From NCBI RefSeq assembly GCF_000027125.1, contig NC_017626.1: a stretch of 64,000 nucleotides of DNA. One strand, written 5' to 3'. The notes under the pieces were generated by a model. That model made no database searches, had not been told where the DNA came from, and was given only the letters and a program-made list of their open reading frames with translations. Shown one piece after another: positions 5,111 through 57,218 of the stretch. Position 1 is the first letter of the stretch. Each line of letters opens with the position of its first letter. The translations under genes were made by a program, and so were the position numbers. The DNA comes from Escherichia coli 042. Lineage in GTDB: Bacteria; Pseudomonadota; Gammaproteobacteria; Enterobacterales; Enterobacteriaceae.

Positions 5111-5920
5111 TCACCTCTGCAATATTTTGTCCATCACGCGCCCCGGCAGCAGGCGCTTGAGCACCATTACTGCCCAGGTCACCAGCGTTACCGGATAGCG
5201 CATCTTCGGCTTCTCGCTAATAAAAGCATGGCGCACTTTGTCGACCACCGCTTCCGGCCCCAACGTAAAGCGGGCGGCGATGCCGGGATTTTCGACAGGT
5301 TTATCACTTTGTGTCTGGTTGACGTTGTCGGTAAAACGAGTACGAATAGGACCGGGTTCAATCAGGCTGACTTTAATTCCGCTGTGGCGCAGCTCCATGC
5401 GCAGCGCGTCTGACCACGCCTCCAGCGCATATTTACTGGCTGCGTAAGCTCCTCGACCCGGCGTGGAGATTAATCCCATCACCGATGAGGTCATCACAAT
5501 ACGCCCTTCACCGTGCGGTAACATCGCGGGTAACAGGCGCATGGTGAGCTGGTGCGCGCCGAAAAAGTTGGCAGAAAACTGCTGTTCCATCTGCGCACGG
5601 CTGATGGTGGAAAGGGGGCCATACATGCCGAATCCGGCATTGTTAAAGATCCCATACAGACAATTATCGGTCAGGGCGATCACTTCGTCGGCTGCGCGAT
5701 CAACACTTTCTGGCGAATCCAGATCGATCAACACGCCGGTAAATCCCATGCTGTTCATGCGCTCAACATCATCCGCTTTCCGGCAACCTGCCAGCACATG
5801 AAAACCCTGGCGTTTTAATTCGAGCGCACTTTCCAGGCCAATTCCACTGGAACATCCGGTAATTAAGACCGATTTTTGCATAACTTTACCTGTCAGGATC
5901 TCCGTTGCTTTATGAGTCAT
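5111..5920 (-). CDS. ybbO: short-chain dehydrogenase/reductase YbbO
   Basis: 269 aa with SDR motifs (TGCSSGIG cofactor site, YAASK active site). Confidence 0.9.
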   Translation of the reverse strand: MTHKATEILTGKVMQKSVLITGCSSGIGLESALELKRQGFHVLAGCRKADDVERMNSMGFTGVLIDLDSPESVDRAADEVIALTDNCLYGIFNNAGFGMYGPLSTISRAQMEQQFSANFFGAHQLTMRLLPAMLPHGEGRIVMTSSVMGLISTPGRGAYAASKYALEAWSDALRMELRHSGIKVSLIEPGPIRTRFTDNVNQTQSDKPVENPGIAARFTLGPEAVVDKVRHAFISEKPKMRYPVTLVTWAVMVLKRLLPGRVMDKILQR

Positions 5921-6536
5921 GATTTACTAAAGGCTGCAACTGCTTCGCCATCCAGTCGGCAATAAACGGCTGGGCGTCGCGGTTGGGATGAATACCGTCA
6001 TCCTGCATCCATTGTGGTTTGAGGTAGACCTCTTCCATAAAAAAGGGCAGCAGCGGAACATCAAACTCTTTGGCGAGTTTGGGGTAAATGGCACTAAAGG
6101 CTTCATTATAACGGCGACCATAGTTTGCAGGCAGACGTATTTGCATTAACAATGGTTCAGCGTTGGCGGCTTTGACATCCTGCAAAATCTGGCGCAGCGT
6201 TTGCTCGGTTTGCTGTGGCTGAAAACCACGCAAACCGTCATTGCCGCCCAGTTCAACCAGCACCCAGCGCGGCTGATGCTGTTTCAGCAGAGCCGGAAGG
6301 CGCGCCAGCCCTTGTTGCGAGGTGTCGCCGCTGATGCTGGCATTGACTACCGACGTTTTACTCTGCCACTTATCATTCAACAAGGCAGGCCAGGCCGCGC
6401 TGGCAGACATTCGATACCCGGCGCTCAGGCTATCACCCAGAATCAATAACGTGTCCGCTGCGGCGGCACGGAAGGTTAACAGGACCAGGAACAGGAAGGG
6501 CAAATGCCAGCGGAAAACATTGTTGAAGTTCATCAT
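5910..6536 (-). CDS. tesA: acyl-CoA thioesterase I / lysophospholipase L1 TesA
   Basis: Start at MMNFNNVFRW gives 208 aa; signal peptide then GDSL motif (LILGDSLSAGY). Confidence 0.9.
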   Translation of the reverse strand: MMNFNNVFRWHLPFLFLVLLTFRAAAADTLLILGDSLSAGYRMSASAAWPALLNDKWQSKTSVVNASISGDTSQQGLARLPALLKQHQPRWVLVELGGNDGLRGFQPQQTEQTLRQILQDVKAANAEPLLMQIRLPANYGRRYNEAFSAIYPKLAKEFDVPLLPFFMEEVYLKPQWMQDDGIHPNRDAQPFIADWMAKQLQPLVNHDS

Positions 6537-9601: not shown

Positions 9602-9609
9602 TGACAGGC

Positions 9610-9725
9610 GTTAGATTGCCTGATGCGCTACGCTTAACAGGCCCACGAGGATCGTGCAATATATTGATTTTGCAAGATTGTGTAGGCCGGATAAGGCGTT
9701 TACGCCGCATCTGGCATGAACAGTG
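9610..9725. repeat. REP-type palindromic units
   Basis: Motifs gcctgatgcgctacgc... and tgtaggccggataaggcgtttacgccgcatctggc directly after the ybbP stop. Confidence 0.6.
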
Positions 9726-9818
9726 TGCATTTTGGCAATAAATATGAAACCAACTGTCATGTCGGTTTTTTTAAAGGCCGAAGGTGGTAAACCTTCGGCC
9801 TTAGCTACGTTTCCTCAG

Positions 9819-9902
9819 TTATTCAATAAACTGACGGATCAGTTCCAGCAGCGCGATTAGCGCCTTAAGAACGATGAGAACTTTATCGAGAAAAGTTTTC
9901 AT
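9819..9902 (-). CDS. candidate type I toxin peptide (27 aa, DinQ/TisB/ZorO-like amphipathic helix)
   Basis: My translation of the minus strand: GGGAG SD, 6 nt, then ATG AAA ACT TTT ... GAA TAA = MKTFLDKVLIVLKALIALLELIRQFIE. Too short for the ORF track. Leu/Ile-rich single helix typical of small membrane-active toxins. Confidence 0.5.
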   Translation of the reverse strand: MKTFLDKVLIVLKALIALLELIRQFIE

Positions 9903-9975
9903 CCGTTGCTCCCTTAAGGGAGAAAGACAATCACAGCTTACCCTTACGTTGCCTGTAACTATGATTTTCTTCATG

Positions 9976-9991
9976 TGCTAGATGAGGACTG
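9976..9991. promoter_or_regulatory. 16-nt element tgctagatgaggactg, identical to the 5' end of the downstream sRNA candidate; predicted antisense target in the toxin 5' UTR
   Basis: Exact 16-nt direct repeat of 10162-10177, ~75-90 nt upstream of the toxin ATG on the toxin-coding strand. Confidence 0.4.
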
Positions 9992-10127
9992 CCTCTCTCC
10001 AAATTAGAGCACCAGAATCAGCACCACCTGTATCCTGACCAGGACTTAAAAGTACTTTTCCGCACTGCGGTAATCCCTTGAGGCAGTATCACTACTAGCG
10101 TCGGGATTGTATCGCCAACATAGCTGT

Positions 10128-10156
10128 TTGAATATGTAGGCATCCTGACTTATAAT
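10128..10156 (+). promoter_or_regulatory. sigma70-type promoter (TTGAAT, 17-bp spacer, TATAAT)
   Basis: -35 TTGAAT at 10128-10133 and -10 TATAAT at 10151-10156 with a 17-bp spacer; near-consensus in an intergenic region. Confidence 0.55.
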
Positions 10157-10162
10157 TCACTT

Positions 10163-10250
10163 GCTAGATGAGGACTGTTTCATTTCTACCCGGAACCACC
10201 AAGTCTTGGGCGGAAAAAATAAAAAAACCGACTGTCATGTCGGTTTTTTT
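10163..10250 (+). ncRNA. candidate small RNA (~88 nt), putative antitoxin of the type I toxin
   Basis: Predicted start ~7 nt after the -10; ends in an intrinsic terminator (accgac-tgtcat-gtcggt stem then T7 at 10244-10250). The first ~16 nt repeat the 9976-9991 element. Confidence 0.5.
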
Positions 10251-10313
10251 ATATCTGTATTCTGGTGCAACCATTCTGTTCTCACGACAATCGCCGTTTC
10301 AGAATACCGTCCA

Positions 10314-43353: not shown

Positions 43354-43869
43354 ATGAGAAGAGTACTTTTTAGCTGTTTCTGCGGGCTACTGTGGAGTTC
43401 CAGTGGATGGGCAGTTGACCCTTTAGGAACGATTAATATCAATTTGCACGGTAACGTTGTTGATTTCTCCTGTACCGTAAACACAGCGGATAAGGATAAG
43501 ACGGTAGATTTAGGCAGATGGCCTACGACACAATTACTGAGCGCTGGCGATACCACGGCACTCGTCCCTTTTAGCCTGCGGCTGGAGGGATGTCCTCCGG
43601 GTTCAGTTGCGATTTTATTTACGGGAACGCCGGCATCTGATGCCAACCTGCTGGCTTTGGATGATCCCGCAATGGCACAAACCGTCGCCATCGAATTACG
43701 TAATAGCGATCGCTCCCGGCTCGCACTGGGGGAGGCGAGCCCGACTGAGGAAGTAGATGCAAATGGCAATGTCACACTAAACTTTTTTGCCAATTATCGA
43801 GCGTTAGCCAGCGGTGTTCAGCCAGGTGTGGCGAAAGCGGATGCGATATTTATGATCAATTATAATTAA
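43354..43869 (+). CDS. sfmF: minor fimbrial subunit
   Basis: Start at MRRVLFSCFCGLLWSSSGWA gives 171 aa with signal peptide. Confidence 0.85.
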   Translation: MRRVLFSCFCGLLWSSSGWAVDPLGTININLHGNVVDFSCTVNTADKDKTVDLGRWPTTQLLSAGDTTALVPFSLRLEGCPPGSVAILFTGTPASDANLLALDDPAMAQTVAIELRNSDRSRLALGEASPTEEVDANGNVTLNFFANYRALASGVQPGVAKADAIFMINYN

Positions 43870-43871
43870 TA

Positions 43872-44504
43872 TTATATTAATTCATATAATTTGGCATAGT
43901 CGATAAGCTCTACAATTGAATGCAAACCTAGCTTGCCATAAATATTAGATTTATGCGCACTAACTGTTTTATTGCTAAGTAATAACTTATCGGCAATTTC
44001 TTTATTGGATAATCCGCTAACCAGATAACGTAATATGGTCACTTCACGATTAGATAGCACCGTGACCGTTGAACTATTCGTACTGCATTTATTGCTTTTT
44101 ATATAGTTGAGCGTTTCGCTGGGGAAAAAAGTGTATCCGGAGAGGATCATCTGAACGGCGTGAAAAATATCATTTTGATCATTGCATTTACTGACAAAAC
44201 CGTTAGCACCAGCTTGTATCGCTCTGCCAGCATAAAAGCATTCTGATTTCGATGATAAAAATAATACTTTCACTGTGCTCTGGATTTGTTTGATCCTTTT
44301 CAGGAAGGTAAAACCGTCTGTTCCGGGCAAGTCTATATCCATAATGATTAAATCAACAGGACGGGTTCGGAGATAATCGATGGTTATGCGATAATCATCC
44401 GTTTTCAGGACAATTTGCAATTCATTGTTTTTTTGCAACAGAACTTCAATAGACATTCTGATGATAGGATGAGTATCCATAATGATCACCGACGTTGGTT
44501 TCAT
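43872..44504 (-). CDS. fimZ: LuxR/NarL-family response regulator FimZ
   Basis: Start at MKPTSVIIMDTHPI gives 210 aa; receiver domain plus C-terminal LuxR HTH. Confidence 0.9.
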   Translation of the reverse strand: MKPTSVIIMDTHPIIRMSIEVLLQKNNELQIVLKTDDYRITIDYLRTRPVDLIIMDIDLPGTDGFTFLKRIKQIQSTVKVLFLSSKSECFYAGRAIQAGANGFVSKCNDQNDIFHAVQMILSGYTFFPSETLNYIKSNKCSTNSSTVTVLSNREVTILRYLVSGLSNKEIADKLLLSNKTVSAHKSNIYGKLGLHSIVELIDYAKLYELI

Positions 44505-44687
44505 AGTTACCAGTCTCATTGGATCGGACAATTTTCCGTTAGGGCGGGAAATTGTACTTTGATACATGAAAATACGGGTTTTCTTGATTCAGACGCGCAG
44601 CGATGTGCGTTTGTTTGCCGCTATAGCGAAATAAATCAGAAAATCAGACGCGGTCGTTCACTTGTTCAGCAACCAGATCAAAAGCCA

Positions 44688-44715
44688 TTGACTCAGCAAG
44701 GGTTGACCGTATAAT
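44688..44715 (+). promoter_or_regulatory. candidate argU promoter (TTGACT, 16-bp spacer, TATAAT)
   Basis: -35 TTGACT at 44688-44693 and -10 TATAAT at 44710-44715, ~30 bp upstream of the tRNA. Confidence 0.6.
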
Positions 44716-44746
44716 TCACGCGATTACACCGCATTGCGGTATCAAC

Positions 44747-44823
44747 GCGCCCTTAGCTCAGTTGGATAGAGCAACGACCTTCTAAGTCGTGGGCCGCAGG
44801 TTCGAATCCTGCAGGGCGCGCCA
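44747..44823 (+). tRNA. argU: tRNA-Arg (anticodon UCU)
   Basis: 77-nt cloverleaf: acceptor gcgccct.../...agggcgc-CCA, D-arm agctcagttggatagagc, anticodon loop cTTCTAa, T-arm ggttcgaatcc. Confidence 0.95.
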
Positions 44824-44868
44824 TTTCTTCTTCATTTATCCCCGTCTTATCCGTTTCCGCTTTGCCCT

Positions 44869-45630
44869 TCACCACATCACTTTTTGTCGCTGTTTGGCGA
44901 GATAATTCAACGGTGTCAGGCCGTAAAACGCCTTAAAAACAGAGATAAAGTACGACGTGCTGCTATAGCCACATAATTGCGCTACCTGAGTGATATTTTT
45001 GTTATCCATCAATAACATCTGTACGGCGTAACGCATACGACACTCTGTGACAATCTGGCTATAGCTGGTATTTTCGTTTTTTAATTTCTTTTTGAGCAGG
45101 CTGGGGCTTAAACATAGCGAACTGGCGACAATTCGCAGATTCCAGTAATGCTGAATATCGCTTTGAATAATGCGGCAGACGCTGTCGCGGACGCTGCTGC
45201 GTAAGATATACATCAGTAGGGCAATAAACCGCGATTGCTCAAGAAAGTTAGACAATACGGTAAAAAGCAATGCGCGCGTCAACTCCGCTTCGCAGGGTTT
45301 GCTGGGTTGCTGCTTGCTGTGGTTGGCGGCTAGCCGGAACACTTCCGGTGTACGGCTATGACAAGCGATAACCGGGGTTGCCAGCCGCGACCAGGGCTTT
45401 ACACAGGTTAAGTTCTTATTTAAAAACAACAGATAATCGTTGATGATGTTGCGGTTGATGTGGGTGATTAATACGTGATTTAACGTTGAGAGTTCAATGA
45501 CGTTATTGTTGCACGCGAAGGCGGCCAGGTAATTTTTCGGAAGGGTAAACGTGGCATGGTTATTGACGCTTACCTCTACCTCTTTTTCGGTCAGGATCAC
45601 CACGCAAGGTTCACTGCTGCTCAATTGCAT
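44869..45630 (-). CDS. envY: AraC-family transcriptional regulator
   Basis: 253 aa; C-terminal AraC-type double HTH; sits next to ybcH as envY does in K-12. Confidence 0.75.
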   Translation of the reverse strand: MQLSSSEPCVVILTEKEVEVSVNNHATFTLPKNYLAAFACNNNVIELSTLNHVLITHINRNIINDYLLFLNKNLTCVKPWSRLATPVIACHSRTPEVFRLAANHSKQQPSKPCEAELTRALLFTVLSNFLEQSRFIALLMYILRSSVRDSVCRIIQSDIQHYWNLRIVASSLCLSPSLLKKKLKNENTSYSQIVTECRMRYAVQMLLMDNKNITQVAQLCGYSSTSYFISVFKAFYGLTPLNYLAKQRQKVMW

Positions 45631-45812
45631 TTCGCACTCCTCAGATATCAGAAACTCCGCTCAAAGGATCTATGCTTCCTGCATGAGTGATCGGCCCGTT
45701 CGCCGATAACGATCTTCTTTCTTTAGCACGCTTTTTAGCAATTAATCTTGATGGAATTCTGACGAGAGCGAAAGAGGTAAGCCAGGTCGTACCCGACTTA
45801 CCTGGAGGAGAT

Positions 45813-46703
45813 TTAATACTCGAGAATGCCGTGCGCAACGGGCAAATAGCGCAGAGAGAAATAGAGCGTGTCTTTACCGCAAGAGGAACGTTTCGCTAAC
45901 AGCGAGGCGATCTCTGCATCCGGTTTCGGTTTCGCTGTAAAGGTTTTACCTTTGCCGGCGACAAACAGTTCATAAACAATGCCGCTGGCAGGGGCGGAAC
46001 TTTGGCAATCGGCGCTGGCCTGTAGATAACGTTCACGCTGTTCAGCGGTAAGTTTATTCACGCCGCTGCCATCCTGTACCCAGACATTAACGCCGGTTGT
46101 TTTAACTTGTTCCAGCAGTTGGCGATAGCCATCGGGCGACATGTTTCCGGCGAAAAAACTACTGATATAAACCGGTTTTGCTGAAACATCGCTAATCAAC
46201 CGCTGCGCGTTGTTTAACCATGTCAGCAACGGTTGACGGGCGGCTTCGCTGCGCCAGTTCAGGTCGTCAATTTCCGCGCTGATGTACCAGCCATCCGGCG
46301 TTACGCCAGGCGCGGCGCTCCATAATCTGGCTTGCTGGAGATCGGCAGCCAGCAGGCGATTAAGATAGCTTTCCAGCGCCGCGGATGACTGTTTCTGGTG
46401 CATAAAAAATTCCGGATCGGCATTCAGCCCGACAATCAGCTTCAGGCCAGCCTGTTGCGCAGCTGCTGCACGCTTAAACAATAACGCGCGCTGTTCTGGC
46501 TGGGTGAATGCATCGCCGTAACGGGTCCATTGCAAAACCAGGGTATCGAAGCCTTGCAAACGTAACTGACTCATCAGCCCCTGCCACTGGGTATCGGTAA
46601 CCTGACTATCACGGTTTTGTGGTTGCCAGATAATACCTTTCATCGCAAAGGAAAAAGGGCTGACCAAAAGCAGTGTCAGCAATACGAAAATGAACTTACG
46701 CAT
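45813..46703 (-). CDS. ybcH: periplasmic protein YbcH (third gene of the nfrBA operon)
   Basis: 296 aa with signal peptide; immediately downstream of nfrA. Confidence 0.85.
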   Translation of the reverse strand: MRKFIFVLLTLLLVSPFSFAMKGIIWQPQNRDSQVTDTQWQGLMSQLRLQGFDTLVLQWTRYGDAFTQPEQRALLFKRAAAAQQAGLKLIVGLNADPEFFMHQKQSSAALESYLNRLLAADLQQARLWSAAPGVTPDGWYISAEIDDLNWRSEAARQPLLTWLNNAQRLISDVSAKPVYISSFFAGNMSPDGYRQLLEQVKTTGVNVWVQDGSGVNKLTAEQRERYLQASADCQSSAPASGIVYELFVAGKGKTFTAKPKPDAEIASLLAKRSSCGKDTLYFSLRYLPVAHGILEY

Positions 46704-49676
46704 TTACCAGTGCACTCCAATGGTGAGAAACGCGTTGTTGCGCTCTCCGTTACGTTGATTAATTGCCTTAAAGGTATGTTGATACTCGACGCCGAGACTG
46801 ACTTTGTGCGGCCAGGCGTCGTAGTGCGTCTCGCCGGTCCAGATATTCCAGCGGACCCCGACACCGCCAAGCTGCGCGCCCTGAGTGCCTTTATCACGAT
46901 AACCGTTGTCCTGAACGTGAGCGTAAGGCTCAATAGTCTGTCCGTTCGCCACCTTCTGATGCCAGCTGACGCGATAATCTGCCGTCCACGCCTGAATATC
47001 CTGGCGGACATATTGCGCCGCATCGAGGTACAGGTTTTGGGCAAACCAGCCTGAACCGTTCGGGTGCCATTCATCGCTGTATTTGCCGCCATTAAAGAAT
47101 GAGGCGCTGGCGCGCAGCATGGTATCGGATGCGCCATTTTGCCCGTTCAGCGGCAACTGCTGTTCGACGGCGAGGAAAAAGATCTGATCGCGCAGCGGCT
47201 TCCAGCGCAGACCGGTGCCGGACATCGGATTTTTCACCGGCATCATCACCCCGTTTTCTCCGGTATCGGCAAATACACGGCTGTAAACCGAGAGCAGGTC
47301 GCCTTCCAGCAGCATATTGCGTCCGATGCGGTACTCGGCTTCCAGTTGCCCGTAGCTACGATAGCTTTTCCCTGGCGCTGCGCCGCCGACATTATTGTTA
47401 GCGGTACTCATCGCGCCGGAACGCAAGCCGATGGAAGAATCGAAACTGAACGTCCAGCGGCGACCGACCTCCTCATGCAGACGGCGGAAATTGAAGCGTT
47501 GCTGATTTTGCTCTGGGGTCAGTGGGGTTATCAGCGCCTGATTATCAATGTCATCAATCACCAGCCGGGCGTAGTGCTGCGTCGCAGGCATGTCATCCAG
47601 ACGCTGGTTCACGTAGGCCAGTTGTCGGATAAGTGCCGGATCGTCCGGTAGCCCTTTATGCGCCTGTTCGAGCATTTCCCGCGACTGTGCGATATCACCG
47701 CTATCCCACAAGGCGTAACCGAGCGCTGCCTGGGTGTTGCTATTATTCGGCTCCAGTTCCAGCGCGGCGCGCAAATCACTCACTGCCGCTGGGACATTAT
47801 GACGTTGGCGATAAATTGTCGCCCGCGCAACGTAAGCGTTGGCAGAAGGCGCAATATTGATTGAGCGCGTGAGATCGTTCAGTGCGAGTTCCGGCTGACC
47901 AGGAATGTAACGTTGCGCATGCAGCCACCAGTAGAGGGCATTGTTTCCCAGCCCACGTTGTTCTGCCTGCTGAAGCCAGCGATCGCGAGCCGCACCATTT
48001 CCTGCCGCCTGGGCGGTATTGGCAGCAGCAAGCAGATCCTCATTGCTCATGTCGTGAAGACTGATTTTCTGCCAGGCCGCCAGTGCGGTGGCGTAGTCCT
48101 CAACCTGATACGCTTGATAGGCTACCGCACGATGTTGCCAGGCGTTCGGTTGTCGTTGTTCGGCCTGAAGCCATGCATACAACGCCACACCGGGTAGCGT
48201 GTCCCGATAACACTTTGCCAGACGGTTCCAGGCGGCGGCATCGTAGGAAGGCGACATATCGCCCAGCAAGCGAACTATTGCCGGGCAATTATCTGCAATA
48301 CCCGGCAACTGACTTTGCCACTGACGTTGCTCCGCCAGCGGTAAGGGTTTCGATAAAATCGCCACCTTCGCCGGCGTTGCCAGGTAAGGATGACTTTCCA
48401 GCAGAGACGCCAGTCGCGCCATTAAAGTCTGGCTGACACGCGCATCGCCCTGGAAAGGATAGCGTTGCAGCAATAAATCGGCAGCTTCGCGTGACTGCTC
48501 GTTCTGCATCAGTTGCCAGGTCAGTTGATCCAGGCGGGTAAGATTTGCCGGTTCTTGCTGATACAGCAATCGTGCCAGACGCAGAGCTTCAGCCTTGTTA
48601 TGGGTCGCTACGCTAACGGTATAACGCTCCTCAAGCATTTCATTGGCGGGGAGGGTGGCGAGCAGTTTTTGCGCTGCGTCGTACTGACCTTCTTTTAACA
48701 GCACCGGTAGCGTCGCGCCAACAACATACTGGCGGTTGTCGGCAAACTGTACCGTATAATTCGCCAACGCCTGAACGGGGTTGCCGCTGTATTTAGATAA
48801 CAGATAGAGCCAACTTTTCTCTTGTGCGTCCGTGGTAAATAGCGGAGTATTTTCAATGAGATAACGCTGGAGGCGTGCTTTTTCGTCACGATAAGCCAGC
48901 GCGGTCGCGTAAGTAATATATGACTGCGGATCGGTGAAGATCCCCTGTGATTGCAGCGCCAGGATCCGATCGTCCAGCTGCCCGGCAAGAAGCACATCAA
49001 ACCACTGGCGGCGTTCTGCCGCGCTTAATGTGTTCTGCTGGCGTGCTTCATTGTATAGCGTATCTGCCTGGGACCATTGCTTCAGGTAGATTGCCCGTTG
49101 CAGCAGATCGGTTCGCAGCGTTTTTCCTTCCGGCGATGCAGCAAACGTCGCATCGTTCAGTTGCGCTCTGGCGACAGGTAATTGTGCCAGCCGCAGGGCA
49201 TTCTGCCCAACTTCACTGCGACAACGCAGGGTCGGCGCAGCATCGCACGCTTTTTGCTGGGCAAGCAGTTCTTCAACTGTCGTAACGCTTTTCACTTCAA
49301 CTGGAATAGCCGCCAGACTGCGCTCAAGTCGGGCATCTCCTGGGTGACGTTTCAGTTGATCCTCAAGCAACAGCCGCGCCCGGTCATCATGACCAAAATA
49401 GCGATAGGCTTCCGCAAGGTATAAAGCCAGCGGAATATTATCCGGCACCTGCTGGTGTATATATTCAAATTCGCGGATGGCGGTTGCTTCGTCGTTATTT
49501 TTCTGTGCCTTCAGCGCCTTATCGAGACGGGGATAAATAACAAAATGGCGATAATCGCTCAGCCCCAGCTCTTCTGCGCTGGTGCCGATATTGTCTGCGA
49601 GTGCGCTGGTACTCAATAAAGACGTCAGCAGTAAACCAGACCATCCGATGACGCGATTAAGGTTATTCTCCTTCAT
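46704..49676 (-). CDS. nfrA: outer membrane protein NfrA (TPR-rich periplasmic part plus C-terminal beta-barrel-like region)
   Basis: Start at MKENNLNRVIGWSGLLL gives 990 aa with signal peptide; the start overlaps the end of nfrB. Confidence 0.9.
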   Translation of the reverse strand: MKENNLNRVIGWSGLLLTSLLSTSALADNIGTSAEELGLSDYRHFVIYPRLDKALKAQKNNDEATAIREFEYIHQQVPDNIPLALYLAEAYRYFGHDDRARLLLEDQLKRHPGDARLERSLAAIPVEVKSVTTVEELLAQQKACDAAPTLRCRSEVGQNALRLAQLPVARAQLNDATFAASPEGKTLRTDLLQRAIYLKQWSQADTLYNEARQQNTLSAAERRQWFDVLLAGQLDDRILALQSQGIFTDPQSYITYATALAYRDEKARLQRYLIENTPLFTTDAQEKSWLYLLSKYSGNPVQALANYTVQFADNRQYVVGATLPVLLKEGQYDAAQKLLATLPANEMLEERYTVSVATHNKAEALRLARLLYQQEPANLTRLDQLTWQLMQNEQSREAADLLLQRYPFQGDARVSQTLMARLASLLESHPYLATPAKVAILSKPLPLAEQRQWQSQLPGIADNCPAIVRLLGDMSPSYDAAAWNRLAKCYRDTLPGVALYAWLQAEQRQPNAWQHRAVAYQAYQVEDYATALAAWQKISLHDMSNEDLLAAANTAQAAGNGAARDRWLQQAEQRGLGNNALYWWLHAQRYIPGQPELALNDLTRSINIAPSANAYVARATIYRQRHNVPAAVSDLRAALELEPNNSNTQAALGYALWDSGDIAQSREMLEQAHKGLPDDPALIRQLAYVNQRLDDMPATQHYARLVIDDIDNQALITPLTPEQNQQRFNFRRLHEEVGRRWTFSFDSSIGLRSGAMSTANNNVGGAAPGKSYRSYGQLEAEYRIGRNMLLEGDLLSVYSRVFADTGENGVMMPVKNPMSGTGLRWKPLRDQIFFLAVEQQLPLNGQNGASDTMLRASASFFNGGKYSDEWHPNGSGWFAQNLYLDAAQYVRQDIQAWTADYRVSWHQKVANGQTIEPYAHVQDNGYRDKGTQGAQLGGVGVRWNIWTGETHYDAWPHKVSLGVEYQHTFKAINQRNGERNNAFLTIGVHW

Positions 49677-51900
49677 TTTCGGACTCCAGTTGCGCAACCT
49701 GTTCTGTGTTTAAACCTGCTTTGAGTAATAGTGATTGCATCGAAACTTGTAATTCGCGTTGAATTGTCAGGACGCGATCCAACGTTTCCTGGCTGATAAC
49801 GCCTTCGGTGACCAAAAACTTGCCGAGCGGCAGAGAACTGCGTTCATGGCGCAATAACAACACGTTAATTGCTGAACGATTAATATGACCGAGCGTGGTC
49901 AGTATTTCGGCGAACAGGAACTGATGCGGCACATATTGCCGCCAGATTTCACCGGCCTGCTGTTCCGTGAGCCACTGATGCTGAACCGCATTGTACAACA
50001 TTGCCCGCGGATCGTGACCGCGTCGGCGCGCATACCAGTGGCGTAACCCCGTGACAATTTGTCCCCGCAGAACAATGACGTAACGCACTTTGCGTCCGAC
50101 TTTACGCGTCAGGGCCGCCAGCGAAACCGGGTCAATACCATCTTCACTGCCGACAATTAACTCATCATTTTCCAGACGCAGCGGCAGCACTGCATAATGC
50201 AGCGCCACGGAGGCCGGCATTTCGGCAATCAGTGATGAAGGGATCTGCCAGGCGTCGATCGACTCCCACGCCACGCCGTTTTGCTCTGCCAGCGCCTGTG
50301 CCAGCTGTTCGGCGCTAATCAGCCCCTGCATCAGCATTGAACCGCCCAGGCGTAGACCTTCGACGCGATTACGCAGTGCTGTATCGAGTTGTTCTTCAGT
50401 GATGACCTGATTTTCCAGCAGGATTTGACCTAACGGACGCAACGAGCGGGTATCGCCAGTCACGCTGGGGAAGTCATGCGTTGTTTTATCCCACGCGACA
50501 CGACGTGGATCGCCGTGTTGAAGTACCTGTTTTAACGCGCGCCAGTTGGCCATGAAGTTAATCAGGTTGCCCCAGAAAAGACGCAGGACAGATAGCAGCC
50601 CCTGCGTCAGGCCGTAGTAGCCAGTAACGAAAATCACCCGCTGCACGATGCGGTTAATCATCAAGCCAAAGTTTAGCCACAGCAGAGTCATTAACCATGC
50701 GCTGCCGCTGAAAATAGAAAGGAAATGCCAGGCATCGGGCCACAAACTTTCATACGCCAGCAACAGCAAAAGCTGGATCATCACCAGCATCGCGAGGAAG
50801 CTGACAAAGTTACTGATTGCCCCTTTGCGGTCGCGCCAGAGAAAGTAGTTCAGCGTCAGACTGGAGGTCCATTTGTGGGTTTTAAAGCCCTGGAAAACAA
50901 TGCCGATGATCCAGCGAGATTTTTGTCGAACCGCAGTCGAAAAGGTATCGGGGAAATATTCGCGCACGCAGATCATGTTTGACGTCCGCGCGTGCTGTAA
51001 AAATTTACGCTGCTCGCGTTCTTTGGCTTCGTCCACCACCGGAAAACGGACAAAAATTTCCGTCATACCTTTTTCTTTCAGGCGGAAACCAATGTCGTAA
51101 TCTTCAGTAAGACTCTGCACGTCGAAAGCAATACCATCACCGTCAGCTAACAGTGCGGTCACGGCGCGGCGGCTGAAACAAGTACCGACGCCTGCGCTGG
51201 GCACCTGTCCGGCGAGGGCTTCACGCACCGGAACATCTTTGCCATGCAGTTCTGAAAACTCATCAATGTAAGTCATGCTGGTGAAGTGCGTCCATTCGCG
51301 TTCGAATGGGTATACCGGGATCTGAATCAGATCTTTACGCTCGACCAGATAGTTGAACAGACGCAATTCCATCGGTGAAATTACGTCTTCGGCGTCATGC
51401 AGAATAAAACCAGCAAAAGCGAAATTGGCGCTACGCTCAAACTGGGTGATGGCGTCCAGCACGTTGTTCAGGCAGTCGGCTTTGCTGGTGGGGCCAGGAC
51501 GCGCGCAGACTACCTTATGCACGTTTGGGAAGCGAGCGCACACTTCGTCAACATCACGCTGAGTATCGGGGTCGTTGGGGTAGGTGCCAACAAAGATATG
51601 ATAGTTTTCATAGTCGAGCGTGGTCGCCGCCAGCTCGGCCATATTGCCGATGACGCCCGTTTCATTCCACGCCGGAACCATAATCGCTAACGGTTTTTCA
51701 TCTGGTTTATACAGTTCGCGGTAACTCATTCGCGGGTAGCGGCGATAAACACTCAACTTGCGTTTAATGCGGCGTACCCAGTAGACGACATCAATAAAAA
51801 AATCGTCCAGCCCGCTGATGAACATGATGACCGCTAACGTTATCGCGATTACTTTTAAGCCGTAGAGCCAGGTAGCAAAAACATCAAGAAGCCAGTCCAC
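49663..51900 (-). CDS. nfrB: inner membrane family-2 glycosyltransferase NfrB with C-terminal cyclic-di-GMP-binding region
   Basis: 745 aa; N-terminal TM, GT-2 catalytic region, additional TMs and a cytoplasmic C-terminal domain. Confidence 0.9.
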   Translation of the reverse strand: MDWLLDVFATWLYGLKVIAITLAVIMFISGLDDFFIDVVYWVRRIKRKLSVYRRYPRMSYRELYKPDEKPLAIMVPAWNETGVIGNMAELAATTLDYENYHIFVGTYPNDPDTQRDVDEVCARFPNVHKVVCARPGPTSKADCLNNVLDAITQFERSANFAFAGFILHDAEDVISPMELRLFNYLVERKDLIQIPVYPFEREWTHFTSMTYIDEFSELHGKDVPVREALAGQVPSAGVGTCFSRRAVTALLADGDGIAFDVQSLTEDYDIGFRLKEKGMTEIFVRFPVVDEAKEREQRKFLQHARTSNMICVREYFPDTFSTAVRQKSRWIIGIVFQGFKTHKWTSSLTLNYFLWRDRKGAISNFVSFLAMLVMIQLLLLLAYESLWPDAWHFLSIFSGSAWLMTLLWLNFGLMINRIVQRVIFVTGYYGLTQGLLSVLRLFWGNLINFMANWRALKQVLQHGDPRRVAWDKTTHDFPSVTGDTRSLRPLGQILLENQVITEEQLDTALRNRVEGLRLGGSMLMQGLISAEQLAQALAEQNGVAWESIDAWQIPSSLIAEMPASVALHYAVLPLRLENDELIVGSEDGIDPVSLAALTRKVGRKVRYVIVLRGQIVTGLRHWYARRRGHDPRAMLYNAVQHQWLTEQQAGEIWRQYVPHQFLFAEILTTLGHINRSAINVLLLRHERSSLPLGKFLVTEGVISQETLDRVLTIQRELQVSMQSLLLKAGLNTEQVAQLESENEGE

Positions 51901-52236
51901 ACAAAAACCTTACATTAACGCTGGTTATGTTTAGGGTGGCGTATATTAAGGTTTTTTATGAATTGTGACAGCTTTTTACCATTAATAGGTATGACTATTG
52001 CGGCACGTTATTTTTACACTGGTTATAAAAGTTGCCGTTTGCGTAGAATGTAGACAAAAGCGTGGTGTCAAGGAGGGGCGGTAAACGTCATAGTGAAGAG
52101 GAGTGGTGGCACCGATCAGGTCATCATGTAGTGTAAGCGTCTGGAGGAGGTGAGCAGGGGAGATCATTTTCCCCGTGCTGAACAAAAAGACGGCGTTGCT
52201 GTGGGTACAGGAAGGCTAACTTCATTTCTCTTTAGA

Positions 52237-52773
52237 TTATTTAAGTTTAATATTCAACCAGGAAATAAAGAACGTTAAAATAACAAAGGAAAAAACAATC
52301 AAAGAGACATTCCTGAAAAATACGTGCTCATAAAAAAGATAAAAAACGTACAAAATTGGGCACGCAACTTTCAGGACGTTTATATGTTTAGAATTCTCTT
52401 TATCTTTAAAGTTAAAATTACATAAAAATATAAAGAAATATGAAAGCATGGCTGAAAACATCATTGATAAGGCGCGATATGGCAGTCCTGAATTAAAGGT
52501 TTCGACTCCTAATAATATTGTCGATAGCGTTGCAATTATAATTGCCACTTTTTTACTAGAGGTGAAAGTAACGACAAAAAATATCAATGATATAAATAAG
52601 AAAGAAAAAAATATGTAAATATTTGTTGATATATGTACTTTATGAGGAACTGTAAAATAGGTATAACTGATTGTAATTATGATGGTAATTATTCTGTATA
52701 GCATGCATGCTAACAGGCCAATCAGTAGTTTGTTCGCAAATTTATAAGGGGATTCGCTATTGGTTGATTGCAT
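52237..52773 (-). CDS. hypothetical polytopic membrane protein (178 aa), AT-rich, island gene
   Basis: Four to six hydrophobic segments; Ile/Phe/Lys-rich composition typical of horizontally acquired genes. Confidence 0.5.
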   Translation of the reverse strand: MQSTNSESPYKFANKLLIGLLACMLYRIITIIITISYTYFTVPHKVHISTNIYIFFSFLFISLIFFVVTFTSSKKVAIIIATLSTILLGVETFNSGLPYRALSMMFSAMLSYFFIFLCNFNFKDKENSKHINVLKVACPILYVFYLFYEHVFFRNVSLIVFSFVILTFFISWLNIKLK

Positions 52774-52837
52774 GGTTATTATGCTCTTGAATTGTGTATT
52801 TTATTGGAATGTTTCTTGGTTAACTAAAACAATGCAT

Positions 52838-53266
52838 TTAATAGGTGGTGGTGTAAATATCAATGTCATACTCATTATCACAGACTACTATTACTCTACG
52901 AGTTATGTCAAAAAATAACGTTAAATCATAGGTTCCCTGTTCTCTGAAAATACTCTGCGCAAATGACGTGAAATTATTCCCATTTATAACTATTTTTACT
53001 TTACCTTCATAGATAAGCCAGCAACGAAAACATTCAGCTGTACCAGATAATGTCACTATCTGACTGATTAGAAGATTTATATTTACCGGATGAGGTAAAA
53101 AAAGTCTGTCGTTGAGGCAATCAATATTATGTGTTTGATGAAACTCTTTTCTCATTAATGAAGAGTTATCATATAGCAGGGTTATACTAAACGAGTCAAT
53201 TCCGTCAAGCTTTTGCATAAATTTGTTTGCTTTATAAATAAGCAACTTTGCTTGTGTTTTTGTCAT
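52838..53266 (-). CDS. hypothetical protein (142 aa), island gene
   Basis: ORF-track ORF, AT-rich, same orientation and tight spacing with neighbours. Confidence 0.45.
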   Translation of the reverse strand: MTKTQAKLLIYKANKFMQKLDGIDSFSITLLYDNSSLMRKEFHQTHNIDCLNDRLFLPHPVNINLLISQIVTLSGTAECFRCWLIYEGKVKIVINGNNFTSFAQSIFREQGTYDLTLFFDITRRVIVVCDNEYDIDIYTTTY

Positions 53267-53293
53267 GATGGTGATCTTTTATGCAAGGGGGAA

Positions 53294-53740
53294 TTATTGG
53301 AATTCAAATGTTTTATATTCCTCTGTAATCATCTTTAAACTTAACATAGCCATGTCTCGGGTATCTTCATCATCAGATTGTAGAGAAATATTTAATCCTT
53401 TAATTAAGGTGTTATCGGGAAAAGCCATTGCCAATAATGTATACCAACATCGGACACTTTTTATTGTCAGAGGATTTTCCAGTATGTTGGCGATATTTGA
53501 AGCTATAATGTTTTTATCACACTTGTACAAAAAATCTTCGACCAACTGATATACACCGAAGCCATCACCTTCCCCAAACGATTGTAAAAATAACGGTATG
53601 GCTTCTTCAGCAGGATTTGCAGAAAAATAAAGCCTTACATTGTTATATTTATTGATAAGTTCCTGAGTGATGTCATAATCATTTGGCATAGGTTGGTTTA
53701 GAGCAAGGAATGCTAATGCTTCTTTTTTAGTCATATTCAT
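53294..53740 (-). CDS. hypothetical protein (148 aa); possible orphan immunity protein
   Basis: ORF-track ORF, acidic and largely helical by eye; AT-rich and next to IS/Rhs remnants. Confidence 0.4.
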   Translation of the reverse strand: MNMTKKEALAFLALNQPMPNDYDITQELINKYNNVRLYFSANPAEEAIPLFLQSFGEGDGFGVYQLVEDFLYKCDKNIIASNIANILENPLTIKSVRCWYTLLAMAFPDNTLIKGLNISLQSDDEDTRDMAMLSLKMITEEYKTFEFQ

Positions 53741-53760
53741 AATGGTTAATATTGCTTGCT

Positions 53761-54313
53761 GGAAGAATTAAGGTAAAAATGGTTCATAGACAGAATTAAA
53801 TAGGAAGTCTTGTTTCCAGATAACTTTATCATGAAAAAGAGATTTGGCTTGATGCGTATAAAGATTATGAGGATAAATAGTTTCTCCACCATAAATGATG
53901 TTCTTTCCCGTTACACCGGAGAATTCATTGGCTATAATCTGTCGTTTAAGCCAGTGAATGACTTTACATAAGCATATTAATTTATCCTTAGAATCAGTTG
54001 TGTTAATTTCAGTAAGTTGTAAAATCTTTTCCCCATTATACTCAACTAAATGCCCCGGCTTTATTTCAATTCAACCACAATAACGATCAATGCTACTAAA
54101 CTTTATTCTTCTATTGTTAGGTTTAATGCTGGGCATAAGATAAATTCGATGTGCTACGGCAGGGATCTTTTCTGTTAAGACATTTAATTGCTTAGAGTAT
54201 TCATCTTGTAGTGTAAACCAAATTGAATGTAATTTGTATTTTGAGGCTACAATCGCGAGCCAATTAGACAGTTCCTCGTTCGTGCAAAAAACATTTATCC
54301 TGGCAGTTGCCAT
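53761..54313 (-). pseudogene. frameshifted hypothetical gene (~180 codons in two frames)
   Basis: The 80-aa ORF 54071-54313 stops at 54071, but an open frame continues in another frame to ~53761 (IEIKPGHLVEYNGEKILQLTEINTTDSKDKLICLCK...). Confidence 0.4.
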
Positions 54314-54346
54314 TCGTAATCCTTTTTATATAAGATTGTGTGAATG

Positions 54347-54549
54347 TCACCGAAACAACTTGATATGAATAAAATAGCTAAAGCGAAATGGATGACGTGT
54401 TACTAAAAAACCATTCTGAAAAGGAAGCCTGAATAAACGCGATGACGAAACTTCCACTCTCCATGTTTCATCAGAAAAATAACTAAATTCGATGTGGTTT
54501 TCATATAATCTCATTTCACGTAAGGTTCCGCTACCATAAGGGACCGCAA
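54347..54549 (-). pseudogene. orphan 3' gene fragment abutting the H-repeat end
   Basis: The track ORF 54347-54583 starts inside the element's terminal repeat; only the part outside the element can be native. Confidence 0.3.
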
Positions 54550-54550
54550 T

Positions 54551-55841
54551 CAGGGAAAGATTACGAAAGCCCGCTCCCAGCAAGGACTGACGCCAGATAG
54601 TTTCTGTCCATGGCTGCTTTTCGCATCTTACGTCTTAACCCTGCCTTGAATACCTTATCATTCGTCAAAATATTAATAGCGATGTGCCGTATCCCTGAAA
54701 ATAATTCTGCGGCGTTTCCTCTTCTTATTTTGCAGTCGTCTTCATTCATTACCACGTCCAGACGCCAGTGCAGCTTATTCTCCACGTGCCAGCGGTTTCG
54801 GATTGCTGTGGCGAACTTCTCTGCGGTTAAATCAGCACAACTGATATAATATCTGACCGTCATTTCTGGCTCTTTCTTTTGTTCTGCTATTATTGACCGA
54901 AAGGAGACTGCCACGCATAATTTCTTCAGACCTTTCCATTCAAACGTGAAATCAATAAGTTCATCAGGGACATCGCAAACAATGTGAAGACGGATTTCTT
55001 CTCTGCCGTGACTCTTTTCACTAATTGCGTAACTGTCATGCTCTGGATTATTTAATTCTTTCAGTGGGAATTTTTCCTCAAAGGCTTTATTAAGCCGCCC
55101 CTGATTTCCTTTTACAGCGAATAAATAATCACCGCCCTGTTTTTGTATCTTCTCTGCAATATCTTTCTGGCAACCCATCGCATCAGTTGTGATGATTTTT
55201 CCTTTAATATCCAGCATGTTAAGAAGTTCAGGGATAGCTGTAATCTCATTTGATTTCTCATCCGTCCTGATCTGTCCGATGACCAGACTGTGCATTGTTG
55301 AGAACGCACTAATGACATGAATCGCTCCCTTGCGGCGACTCTTGTCATAAGAATGCCGGAGTGTTTTTCCATCAATTGCGATGACGTCTTTATCATCTGA
55401 AGAATGGCAGTCACGCATCCAGTTAATAAAGCACTCGTGAAATTTTGCAGGACTGATACAGGATACAACTCTGGCAATAGTATCGTGAACAGGAATACCA
55501 TTATCAAAATCACCATATTGCTTCAAAAAATCGAGATGTGTTTCCCCAAAATCCTCTATATCTTCCCAGCCTTCTGCACCCGAAATAACGGCACAAATAG
55601 TCAACAGTAGAATATCCGATAATTTATGTTCCACTTTCCAGGCTTGTCTGTAATCGGGGATAATAGAAATATGTTCCATCAATTTTTTAAGTTCCATTTT
55701 GTTCTCCTTAATTATGTAAGGAGTATTTGATCATGTATAAGCAATAAAAAACAGCTTTAGGTAATGAGGAATATCTCAATTTGTAAACATAAAATGCGAA
55801 TTATTTAGTACAAAAAGTGTACTTCTGATGATCTTTCCCTG
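54551..55841 (-). mobile_element. H-repeat / ISAs1-family insertion sequence, copy 1 (apparently intact)
   Basis: ~1.29 kb bounded by inverted repeats cagggaaagat (54551-54561) and atctttccctg (55831-55841); contains one long transposase ORF. Confidence 0.8.
54561..55697 (-). CDS. H-repeat-associated (ISAs1-family) transposase, 378 aa
   Basis: 378-aa ORF of the size and character of E. coli Rhs-associated H-repeat proteins; a second disrupted copy lies at 56.7-58.6 kb. Confidence 0.8.
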
Positions 55842-56045
55842 GGAGGTGATACTGACCGTCTGCCCGAATTCGTCATAGAGGAAAAACGTCGCGCCGCCCT
55901 CCGGGTCAATTTCACACACCGGAAGCCGGTCTTCACTGAAGCGGATAATGGTGGTATGCCCCAGCGAATCAGTCATCTCCAGCTCATGGCAGAAATCATT
56001 CCATACAAAGTGGTAGTCGTAGTACCCGCCGTCGCCCAACAGCAA
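55842..56045 (-). pseudogene. YD-repeat (Rhs-like) gene fragment truncated by the H-repeat
   Basis: YD-type repeat signature (...CEIDPEGGATFFLYDEFGQTVSITSQ) runs into the element end; no upstream Rhs core. Confidence 0.45.
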
Positions 56046-56062
56046 TCAATCATCGAATCAAA

Positions 56063-56524
56063 TTAACTTGACAAGGTTTTTATTTTTTCGTGTTCGAAAA
56101 ATAAATGTAGCATAGCGTCATTAATATTACCGCCTATAATACAAAAATAGTTATCAAAACCACCATAAAGAGCACCATCATCTGAAATAAAATATGTCAT
56201 ATGCTCAGAAAAACCAACACCAACAGGACATAAACGCTTATTGACCAATGGTTCATAGACTTCAGTTATCCATTTAGAGTCTATCCAACCAGCAGCTTTT
56301 ATTGGATCAAAATCGGATTTATCATACTCATTAGGATCTGAATAAGATTCATGCCGTACTATCAACCCTCCAAACTCTGATAAAAAATCACAAATAATTT
56401 CATTAACAAAATATTTCTTAATGGATAAACACTTTATATATTTATCTATGTTTTCTTTTCTGCCATAGTGCCATCCATTTTGCAACAGGACACTCATCAC
56501 TTGTTTATTCGTTATATGATTCAT
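56063..56524 (-). CDS. candidate immunity protein for the upstream deaminase-like toxin tip (153 aa)
   Basis: Starts 2 nt after the toxin-fragment stop (TAATTATG), the usual toxin-immunity coupling; family not assigned from sequence alone. Confidence 0.45.
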   Translation of the reverse strand: MNHITNKQVMSVLLQNGWHYGRKENIDKYIKCLSIKKYFVNEIICDFLSEFGGLIVRHESYSDPNEYDKSDFDPIKAAGWIDSKWITEVYEPLVNKRLCPVGVGFSEHMTYFISDDGALYGGFDNYFCIIGGNINDAMLHLFFEHEKIKTLSS

Positions 56525-56526
56525 AA

Positions 56527-56704
56527 TTACCCCGTTAATACATCAATTCCTAAATATTTGAAAATTTCCTGACAGTTTCTACAGTTCGGAAAAGCACTTC
56601 CATCACCAGTATGAACTGTAGCCATTTCCAAATCATGCAACGATGAATTATCTTTGAGAGCTTTATTCACCGCATCTATTTCAGCACAATTATTAACAGC
56701 CCAA
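56527..56704 (-). pseudogene. truncated C-terminal toxin domain with nucleotide deaminase-like motifs
   Basis: Native ~59 codons after the IS boundary: ...NNCAEIDAVNKAL...(33 aa)...AFPNCRNCQEIF..., i.e. a [C/H]AE helix plus CxxC pair with deaminase-fold spacing; the 5' part is replaced by the H-repeat. Confidence 0.5.
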
Positions 56705-57218
56705 GGCAAGATTACGAAAGCCCGCACCCCGCAAGGACTGCCGCCAGGTAGTTTCTGTCCATGGCTGCTTTTCGCATCTTACGTCTTAACCCTGCCTTGA
56801 ATACCTTATCATTCGTTAAAATATTAATAGCGATGTGCCGTATCCCTGAAAATAATTCTGCGGCGTTTCCTCTTCTTATTTTGCAGTCGTCTTCATTCAT
56901 TACCACGTCCAGACGCCAGTGCAGCTTATTCTCCACGTGCCAGTGGTTTCGGATTGCTGTGGCGAACTTCTCTGCGGTTAAATCAGCAGAACTGATATAA
57001 TATCTGACCGTCATTTCTGGCTCTTTCTTTTGTTCTGCTATTATTGACCGAAAGGAGACTGCCACGCATAATTTCTTCAGACCTTTCCATTCAAACGTGA
57101 AATCAATAAGTTCATCAGGGACATCGCAAACAATGTGAAGACGGATTTCTTCTCTGCCGTGACTCTTTTCACTCATTGCGTAACTGTTATGCTCTGGATT
57201 ATTGGTAATGACTCCAAC

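Follow-up and report, generated by a model that had tools for sequence, protein, structure and literature searches.

The argU locus of the 64-kb stretch of Escherichia coli DNA analysed here, hereafter the window, is, to judge from its sequence, a base-precise, unoccupied attachment site (attB) of the DLP12-type lambdoid prophages. The cargo that such an element carries in K-12, including appY and the gene of the outer-membrane protease OmpT, is missing, and the site has most likely never been occupied. We regard this account, taken as a whole, as very probably correct. A preliminary description of the locus had proposed that the argU site is empty and that DLP12, appY and ompT are missing here, and both the tblastn and blastn searches, which were negative, and the alignment with the K-12 junction bear this out.

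argU and its neighbours

The genes around argU follow one another in the order sfmD, sfmH and sfmF (plus strand), fimZ (minus), the tRNA gene, and then envY, ybcH and nfrA (all minus). The features on which the argument rests are the following.

43872–44504, minus strand: fimZ, LuxR-family response regulator and constant neighbour of argU on the left; protein 99.5% identical to that of K-12
44688–44715, plus strand: putative argU promoter, TTGACT, 16 nt, TATAAT; 11/12 positions in a consensus scan, same as the K-12 upstream sequence
44747–44823, plus strand: argU, tRNA-Arg(UCU), intact, CCA end encoded; ARAGORN, Rfam and K-12 alignment
44779–44825, no strand assigned: 47-bp attachment core CTTCTAAGTCGTGGGCCGCAGGTTCGAATCCTGCAGGGCGCGCCATT, in single copy, read as the unoccupied attB; from the anticodon loop to 2 nt beyond the tRNA 3' end
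44824–44868, no strand assigned: argU–envY spacer, exactly 45 bp; counterpart of the host sequence on the right of attR in K-12
44869–45630, minus strand: envY, AraC-family regulator, convergent with argU; open reading frame of 253 aa, 99.6% identity to K-12 EnvY (b0566)
45813–46703, minus strand: ybcH (DUF4434); 97.6% identity to K-12 YbcH, Pfam DUF4434
46704–49697, minus strand: nfrA, downstream neighbour of ybcH

The tRNA gene is the only one in the window. ARAGORN calls a tRNA-Arg with the anticodon TCT (position 35) at 44747–44823 on the plus strand, and positions 44747–44820 match the Rfam tRNA model RF00005 with 72.1 bits (gathering score 29). All 77 of its 77 nucleotides are identical to K-12 argU (alignment A1), as are the 47 nt upstream; the gene is intact, as the preliminary description states. 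Position 44688 is the first base of the –35 hexamer of a near-consensus promoter recognised by the consensus scan, and from its position we infer that 44688–44715 functions as the argU promoter. The distance to fimZ, upstream and on the other strand, is 242 bp; the fimZ product has the Pfam domains Response_reg and GerE, and a fimZ gene is annotated at the corresponding position in the near relative JNE25-003. Salmonella, too, has a rare-codon tRNA-Arg(UCU) gene next to fimZ, namely fimU, which is grouped with the fim regulatory genes fimZ, fimY and fimW.

On the other side of argU, the final base of the envY stop codon is position 44869. The distance of about 45 bp between this stop and the tRNA 3' end, as originally estimated, thus turned out to be exactly 45 bp. 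This spacer differs from its K-12 counterpart by two substitutions and no indel, and no terminator-like hairpin was found within 44824–44868. EnvY has a C-terminal AraC-type helix-turn-helix (Pfam HTH_AraC, 3.6e-19; HTH_18, 5e-16) and qualifies as the orthologue of b0566. The constant right-hand neighbourhood continues with ybcH, nfrA and nfrB, collinear with K-12.

Attachment site anatomy and comparison with K-12

A prophage of the tRNA-targeting kind has a duplicate of the 3' segment of the tRNA in its attP; crossover by the integrase rebuilds a whole tRNA gene at attL, and a partial copy remains at attR. The anatomy of the K-12 argU/DLP12 locus fits this scheme exactly. In K-12, an exact 47-bp direct repeat, CTTCTAAGTCGTGGGCCGCAGGTTCGAATCCTGCAGGGCGCGCCATT, occurs at 564755–564801 and again at 586057–586103; it flanks DLP12 and delimits a 21,302-bp unit. 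In RefSeq, the feature "cryptic prophage DLP12" extends over 564755–586056, starting within argU and ending past ompT, 91 bp before the envY stop. Both appY and ompT are enclosed by this feature and the second core copy, and therefore a single element explains all of the genes missing from the window. The K-12 order given in the preliminary description (fimZ, argU, intD ... appY, ompT, envY, ybcH, nfrA) is correct, except that appY and ompT had been placed after DLP12; they lie inside the unit, between the 47-bp repeats.

Where K-12 has two copies of the core, the window has one. The proposed check for a duplicate of the argU 3' end accordingly returned a single core, at 44779–44825. When exactly one repeat unit is removed from K-12, the resulting sequence matches window positions 44629–44975 over 347 bp with two substitutions and no indels. 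In this reconstructed K-12 attB, the left flank of the window is the left arm of attL and its right flank the right arm of attR, with no bases gained or lost. It is the single core, together with this indel-free match, that identifies the site, at the level of sequence, as a base-precise, unoccupied attB. Apart from the 21,302-bp DLP12 unit (intD ... appY, ompT) between the two cores of K-12 MG1655, the two loci (b0535–b0568 in MG1655) agree in the order and orientation of sfmDHF, fimZ, argU ... envY, ybcH and nfrA; argU and its promoter are identical, and the flanks have 98.0–98.3% DNA identity.

The missing genes, like the anatomy, were established directly. None of the K-12 proteins IntD, AppY, OmpT, EmrE, BorD, RusA, QuuD and NohD has a counterpart in the 64 kb of the window by tblastn, the sole related match being that of AppY to EnvY, and the whole 21-kb interior of DLP12 gave nothing by blastn against the same sequence. 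Between 44823 and 44869, we found no integrase, no ompT and no second argU 3' core. The hallmarks of a DLP12 element (intD immediately 3' of argU, lambdoid genes, and appY and ompT cargo) are thus absent from the window. The re-inspection of the argU–envY interval for ompT, appY or an integrase, which the preliminary description had named as its own possible refutation, left the junction as first described, in agreement with the K-12 alignment.

Two other explanations can be set aside. One is that DLP12, appY and ompT were removed by an illegitimate, non-site-specific deletion. Such deletions do occur in other strains, as in UM146, which lacks envY and most of the prophage, although nothing specific points to one here. 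In the window the breakpoints coincide exactly with the 47-bp core, indels are absent, the tRNA gene is intact, and so are the two flanks, which are collinear with K-12. Because the junction equals K-12 minus one att-bounded unit to the base, this candidate is refuted and we assign it virtually no probability. The other explanation, that a prophage present between the 47-bp repeats was collapsed out during assembly, has nothing in its favour and is scarcely credible either. A 47-bp repeat is far below the length of a sequencing read, a collapse would have to drop 21 kb of unique sequence, and the same junction occurs in 2537 independently finished genomes.

The reading that we favour relies on established knowledge for the integration step. 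The segment is read as an unoccupied attB for DLP12-type lambdoid prophages, overlapping argU in its 3' portion. Such phages possess a copy of the final ~45 nt of this tRNA gene, and their tyrosine integrase regenerates the tRNA at attL; in K-12 the two core copies enclose the 21.3-kb element with intD, lambdoid remnants, appY and ompT. The window holds no integrated element at this site. Here argU, presumably transcribed from its own promoter, directly adjoins the host genes envY, ybcH and nfrA, and for this reason prophage cargo, including ompT, is absent from the locus. Since the core is identical to that of K-12 and other strains, the site should be usable by a phage integrase.

K-12 AppY, itself prophage cargo, matches the C-terminal third of EnvY (window 44893–45180, minus strand) with 44% identity over 96 aa. 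On the strength of this match, the two AraC-family regulators on either side of K-12 ompT can be considered paralogues.

Two further differences from K-12 were observed elsewhere in the window. Between nfrB and cusS, genes about 150 bp apart in K-12, which lacks the insertion, there is an island of ~11.5 kb (52043–63586). Its counterpart in JNE25-003 is annotated with ISAs1/ISEc1 transposases, a SUKH-3 immunity protein, a PAAR-like protein, three beta-propeller repeat proteins and an HNH/EndoVII toxin-2 domain protein, and the island looks like an array of polymorphic toxin and immunity cassettes interrupted by IS elements. The window version is ~770 bp longer than that of JNE25-003, at 57204–57970. 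In addition, the 7.3-kb rhsD-ybbC-ylbH-ybbD-ylbG block of K-12 is missing at 9605–10311, where ybbP is followed by ~700 bp and then selU; the block is a second K-12 accessory element that this strain does not have.

Frequency of the empty site and the whereabouts of ompT

The empty argU site is a well-known and very common polymorphism, the state of a non-lysogen. Of 5426 complete E. coli genomes, 2537 (47%) contain, as one contiguous match, a 250-bp query spanning the argU–envY junction, and 2446 (45%) a 2.1-kb query running from fimZ to ybcH. The K-12-like arrangement ompT-attR-envY was contiguous in 1583/5426 (29%), and ompT was present in 3095/5426 (57%). Among the genomes that share the empty junction, arranged as in the window, are W/KO11FL, O157:H7, JNE25-003 and 266917_2, with up to 99.9% identity over the 2.1-kb locus.

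Because the sum of 2537 and 3095 is 206 more than 5426, an empty argU site must coexist with an ompT gene located elsewhere in no fewer than 206 complete genomes. The wording of the preliminary description, that the strain lacks OmpT "at this locus", was therefore aptly hedged. O157:H7 illustrates the point: one genome has the contiguous empty junction, and in another, FRIK2069, ompT resides in a prophage remnant beside minCDE. An empty site alone is therefore no proof of an OmpT-negative strain. O157:H7 differs in this additional ompT from the window, whose best 60 haplotypes lack the gene.

As a proxy for the rest of the genome, we used a chimeric query consisting of window positions 43800–45900 and K-12 ompT, and counted the matching places per chromosome. 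In the best 60 chromosomes at the locus, all 99.9% identical, megablast detected no chromosomal ompT, each chromosome having one matching place, the locus itself; divergent plasmid-borne ompT variants would be missed by this proxy. By analogy with these 60 closest relatives at the locus, chromosomally encoded OmpT is most likely not produced by the strain.

The similarity of the locus to finished genomes depends on the scale of the comparison. At least 60 complete genomes match the 2.1-kb argU locus (43800–45900) with 99.9% identity. For longer stretches of the window, the best complete E. coli genome reaches 99.2% over 25 kb and 99.4% over 37 kb, and the closest genomes at this scale (20001–64000) are not the same as those for 43800–45900. 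The contrast suggests either a recombination mosaic or a lineage unrepresented among finished genomes.

The occupied genomes bear on the origin of ompT. In every one examined, namely K-12, SWHEFF_69 and UM146, the gene adjoins attR, where a lambdoid prophage or its remnant ends on the right, and because of this constant position ompT appears to be prophage cargo. A review likewise places ompT within DLP12 (PMC5723341). The right end of the SWHEFF_69 element comprises tail-fibre genes, a methyltransferase, an alpha/beta hydrolase, ompT and attR, followed by envY. UM146 has a much reduced remnant in the order folD, argU, truncated integrase, tail-fibre remnant, methyltransferase, ompT and ybcH, and lacks the sfm operon, fimZ and envY. 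The apparent lack of argU itself in UM146, where ARAGORN called no tRNA, proved to be an artefact of N bases within the gene in that assembly. The combination of ompT with a class I SAM methyltransferase and an alpha/beta hydrolase was seen at two sites, beside minCDE in O157:H7 FRIK2069 and, in SWHEFF_69, in the right-hand terminal part of the argU prophage; in K-12, appY takes the neighbouring position held elsewhere by the methyltransferase and hydrolase.

Ancestral absence or loss of the prophage

An empty attB can arise in two ways. The likeliest history would be that the site was never occupied in this lineage and shows the ancestral arrangement, which we infer from comparative evidence and consider a reasonably good, if not a safe, conclusion. 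That argU is unoccupied in nearly half of E. coli genomes favours it. So does the outgroup: the type strain of E. albertii, NBRC 107761, has nfrA, ybcH, envY (84% aa identity), a stretch of ~700 bp, argU and fimZ, with no integrase or ompT found between argU and envY in this single outgroup genome. It favours "empty" as the ancestral state, with the reservation that it is one genome and that its spacer differs by an insert of ~700 bp. The insert is AT-rich and contains a 160-aa open reading frame (5597–6079 of the retrieved locus) with no Pfam hit, which is absent from the window.

Another possibility would be secondary loss, in which an ancestral DLP12-type prophage with ompT resided at argU until Int/Xis recombination between attL and attR restored a perfect attB. 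A clean attB is exactly what such precise excision leaves behind. Elements of the DLP12 family are found widely at argU, distant lineages included, and the remnants in K-12 and UM146 have apparently the same attL junction; the element is therefore either old or mobile within the species, which makes a loss plausible. SWHEFF_69, although occupied, shares the right flank of the window, its attR flank being 100% identical over 171 bp. For the same reason, the right-flank SNPs, considered as a means of separating occupied from empty genomes, fail to do so. Excision of DLP12 in K-12 is reported to be inducible, by Hha according to one paper (PMC4632033). However, nothing in the sequence demands a loss, the element is missing in 47% of genomes and in the one E. 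albertii genome examined, and K-12 xisD is a pseudogene. Moreover, the best 60 haplotypes at the locus are all empty and without ompT, and therefore any loss would not have been recent. On balance, we consider secondary loss plausible but unlikely. The preliminary description had held that deletion and ancestral absence could not be told apart. For illegitimate deletion this no longer applies, given 0 indels and two SNPs in 347 bp, and for the choice between a site never occupied and one precisely vacated it continues to apply.

A narrower version of the loss scenario invokes selection, and has a precedent in Shigella and enteroinvasive E. coli (EIEC). A "black hole" without ompT and DLP12 was described there by Nakata et al. 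1993, as cited in PMC5723341. In those organisms, as in the window, ompT is missing together with the DLP12 region, and the review likewise holds open whether the element was never acquired or was excised (PMC5723341). The window differs in being collinear with ordinary E. coli, and nothing in it points to a Shigella or EIEC origin or to a pathoadaptive absence. That an ompT-bearing DLP12-type prophage was precisely excised here under selection, as proposed for Shigella/EIEC, thus seems to us a little less probable still than loss as such. If it were true, the lineage would be a further case of convergent ompT loss through prophage excision.

To conclude, the argU locus of this strain is best explained as the uninterrupted form of a site that K-12 has in its interrupted form, with ancestral absence as the preferred history. 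The state is common to about half of sequenced E. coli and therefore opens no new question. The likely absence of chromosomal OmpT bears on outer-membrane proteolysis, on resistance to cationic peptides and on the integrity of recombinant proteins, with small practical consequences. The argU site is free for lambdoid phages that target the argU tRNA, and the locus offers a textbook contrast between lysogen and non-lysogen at a tRNA attachment site.
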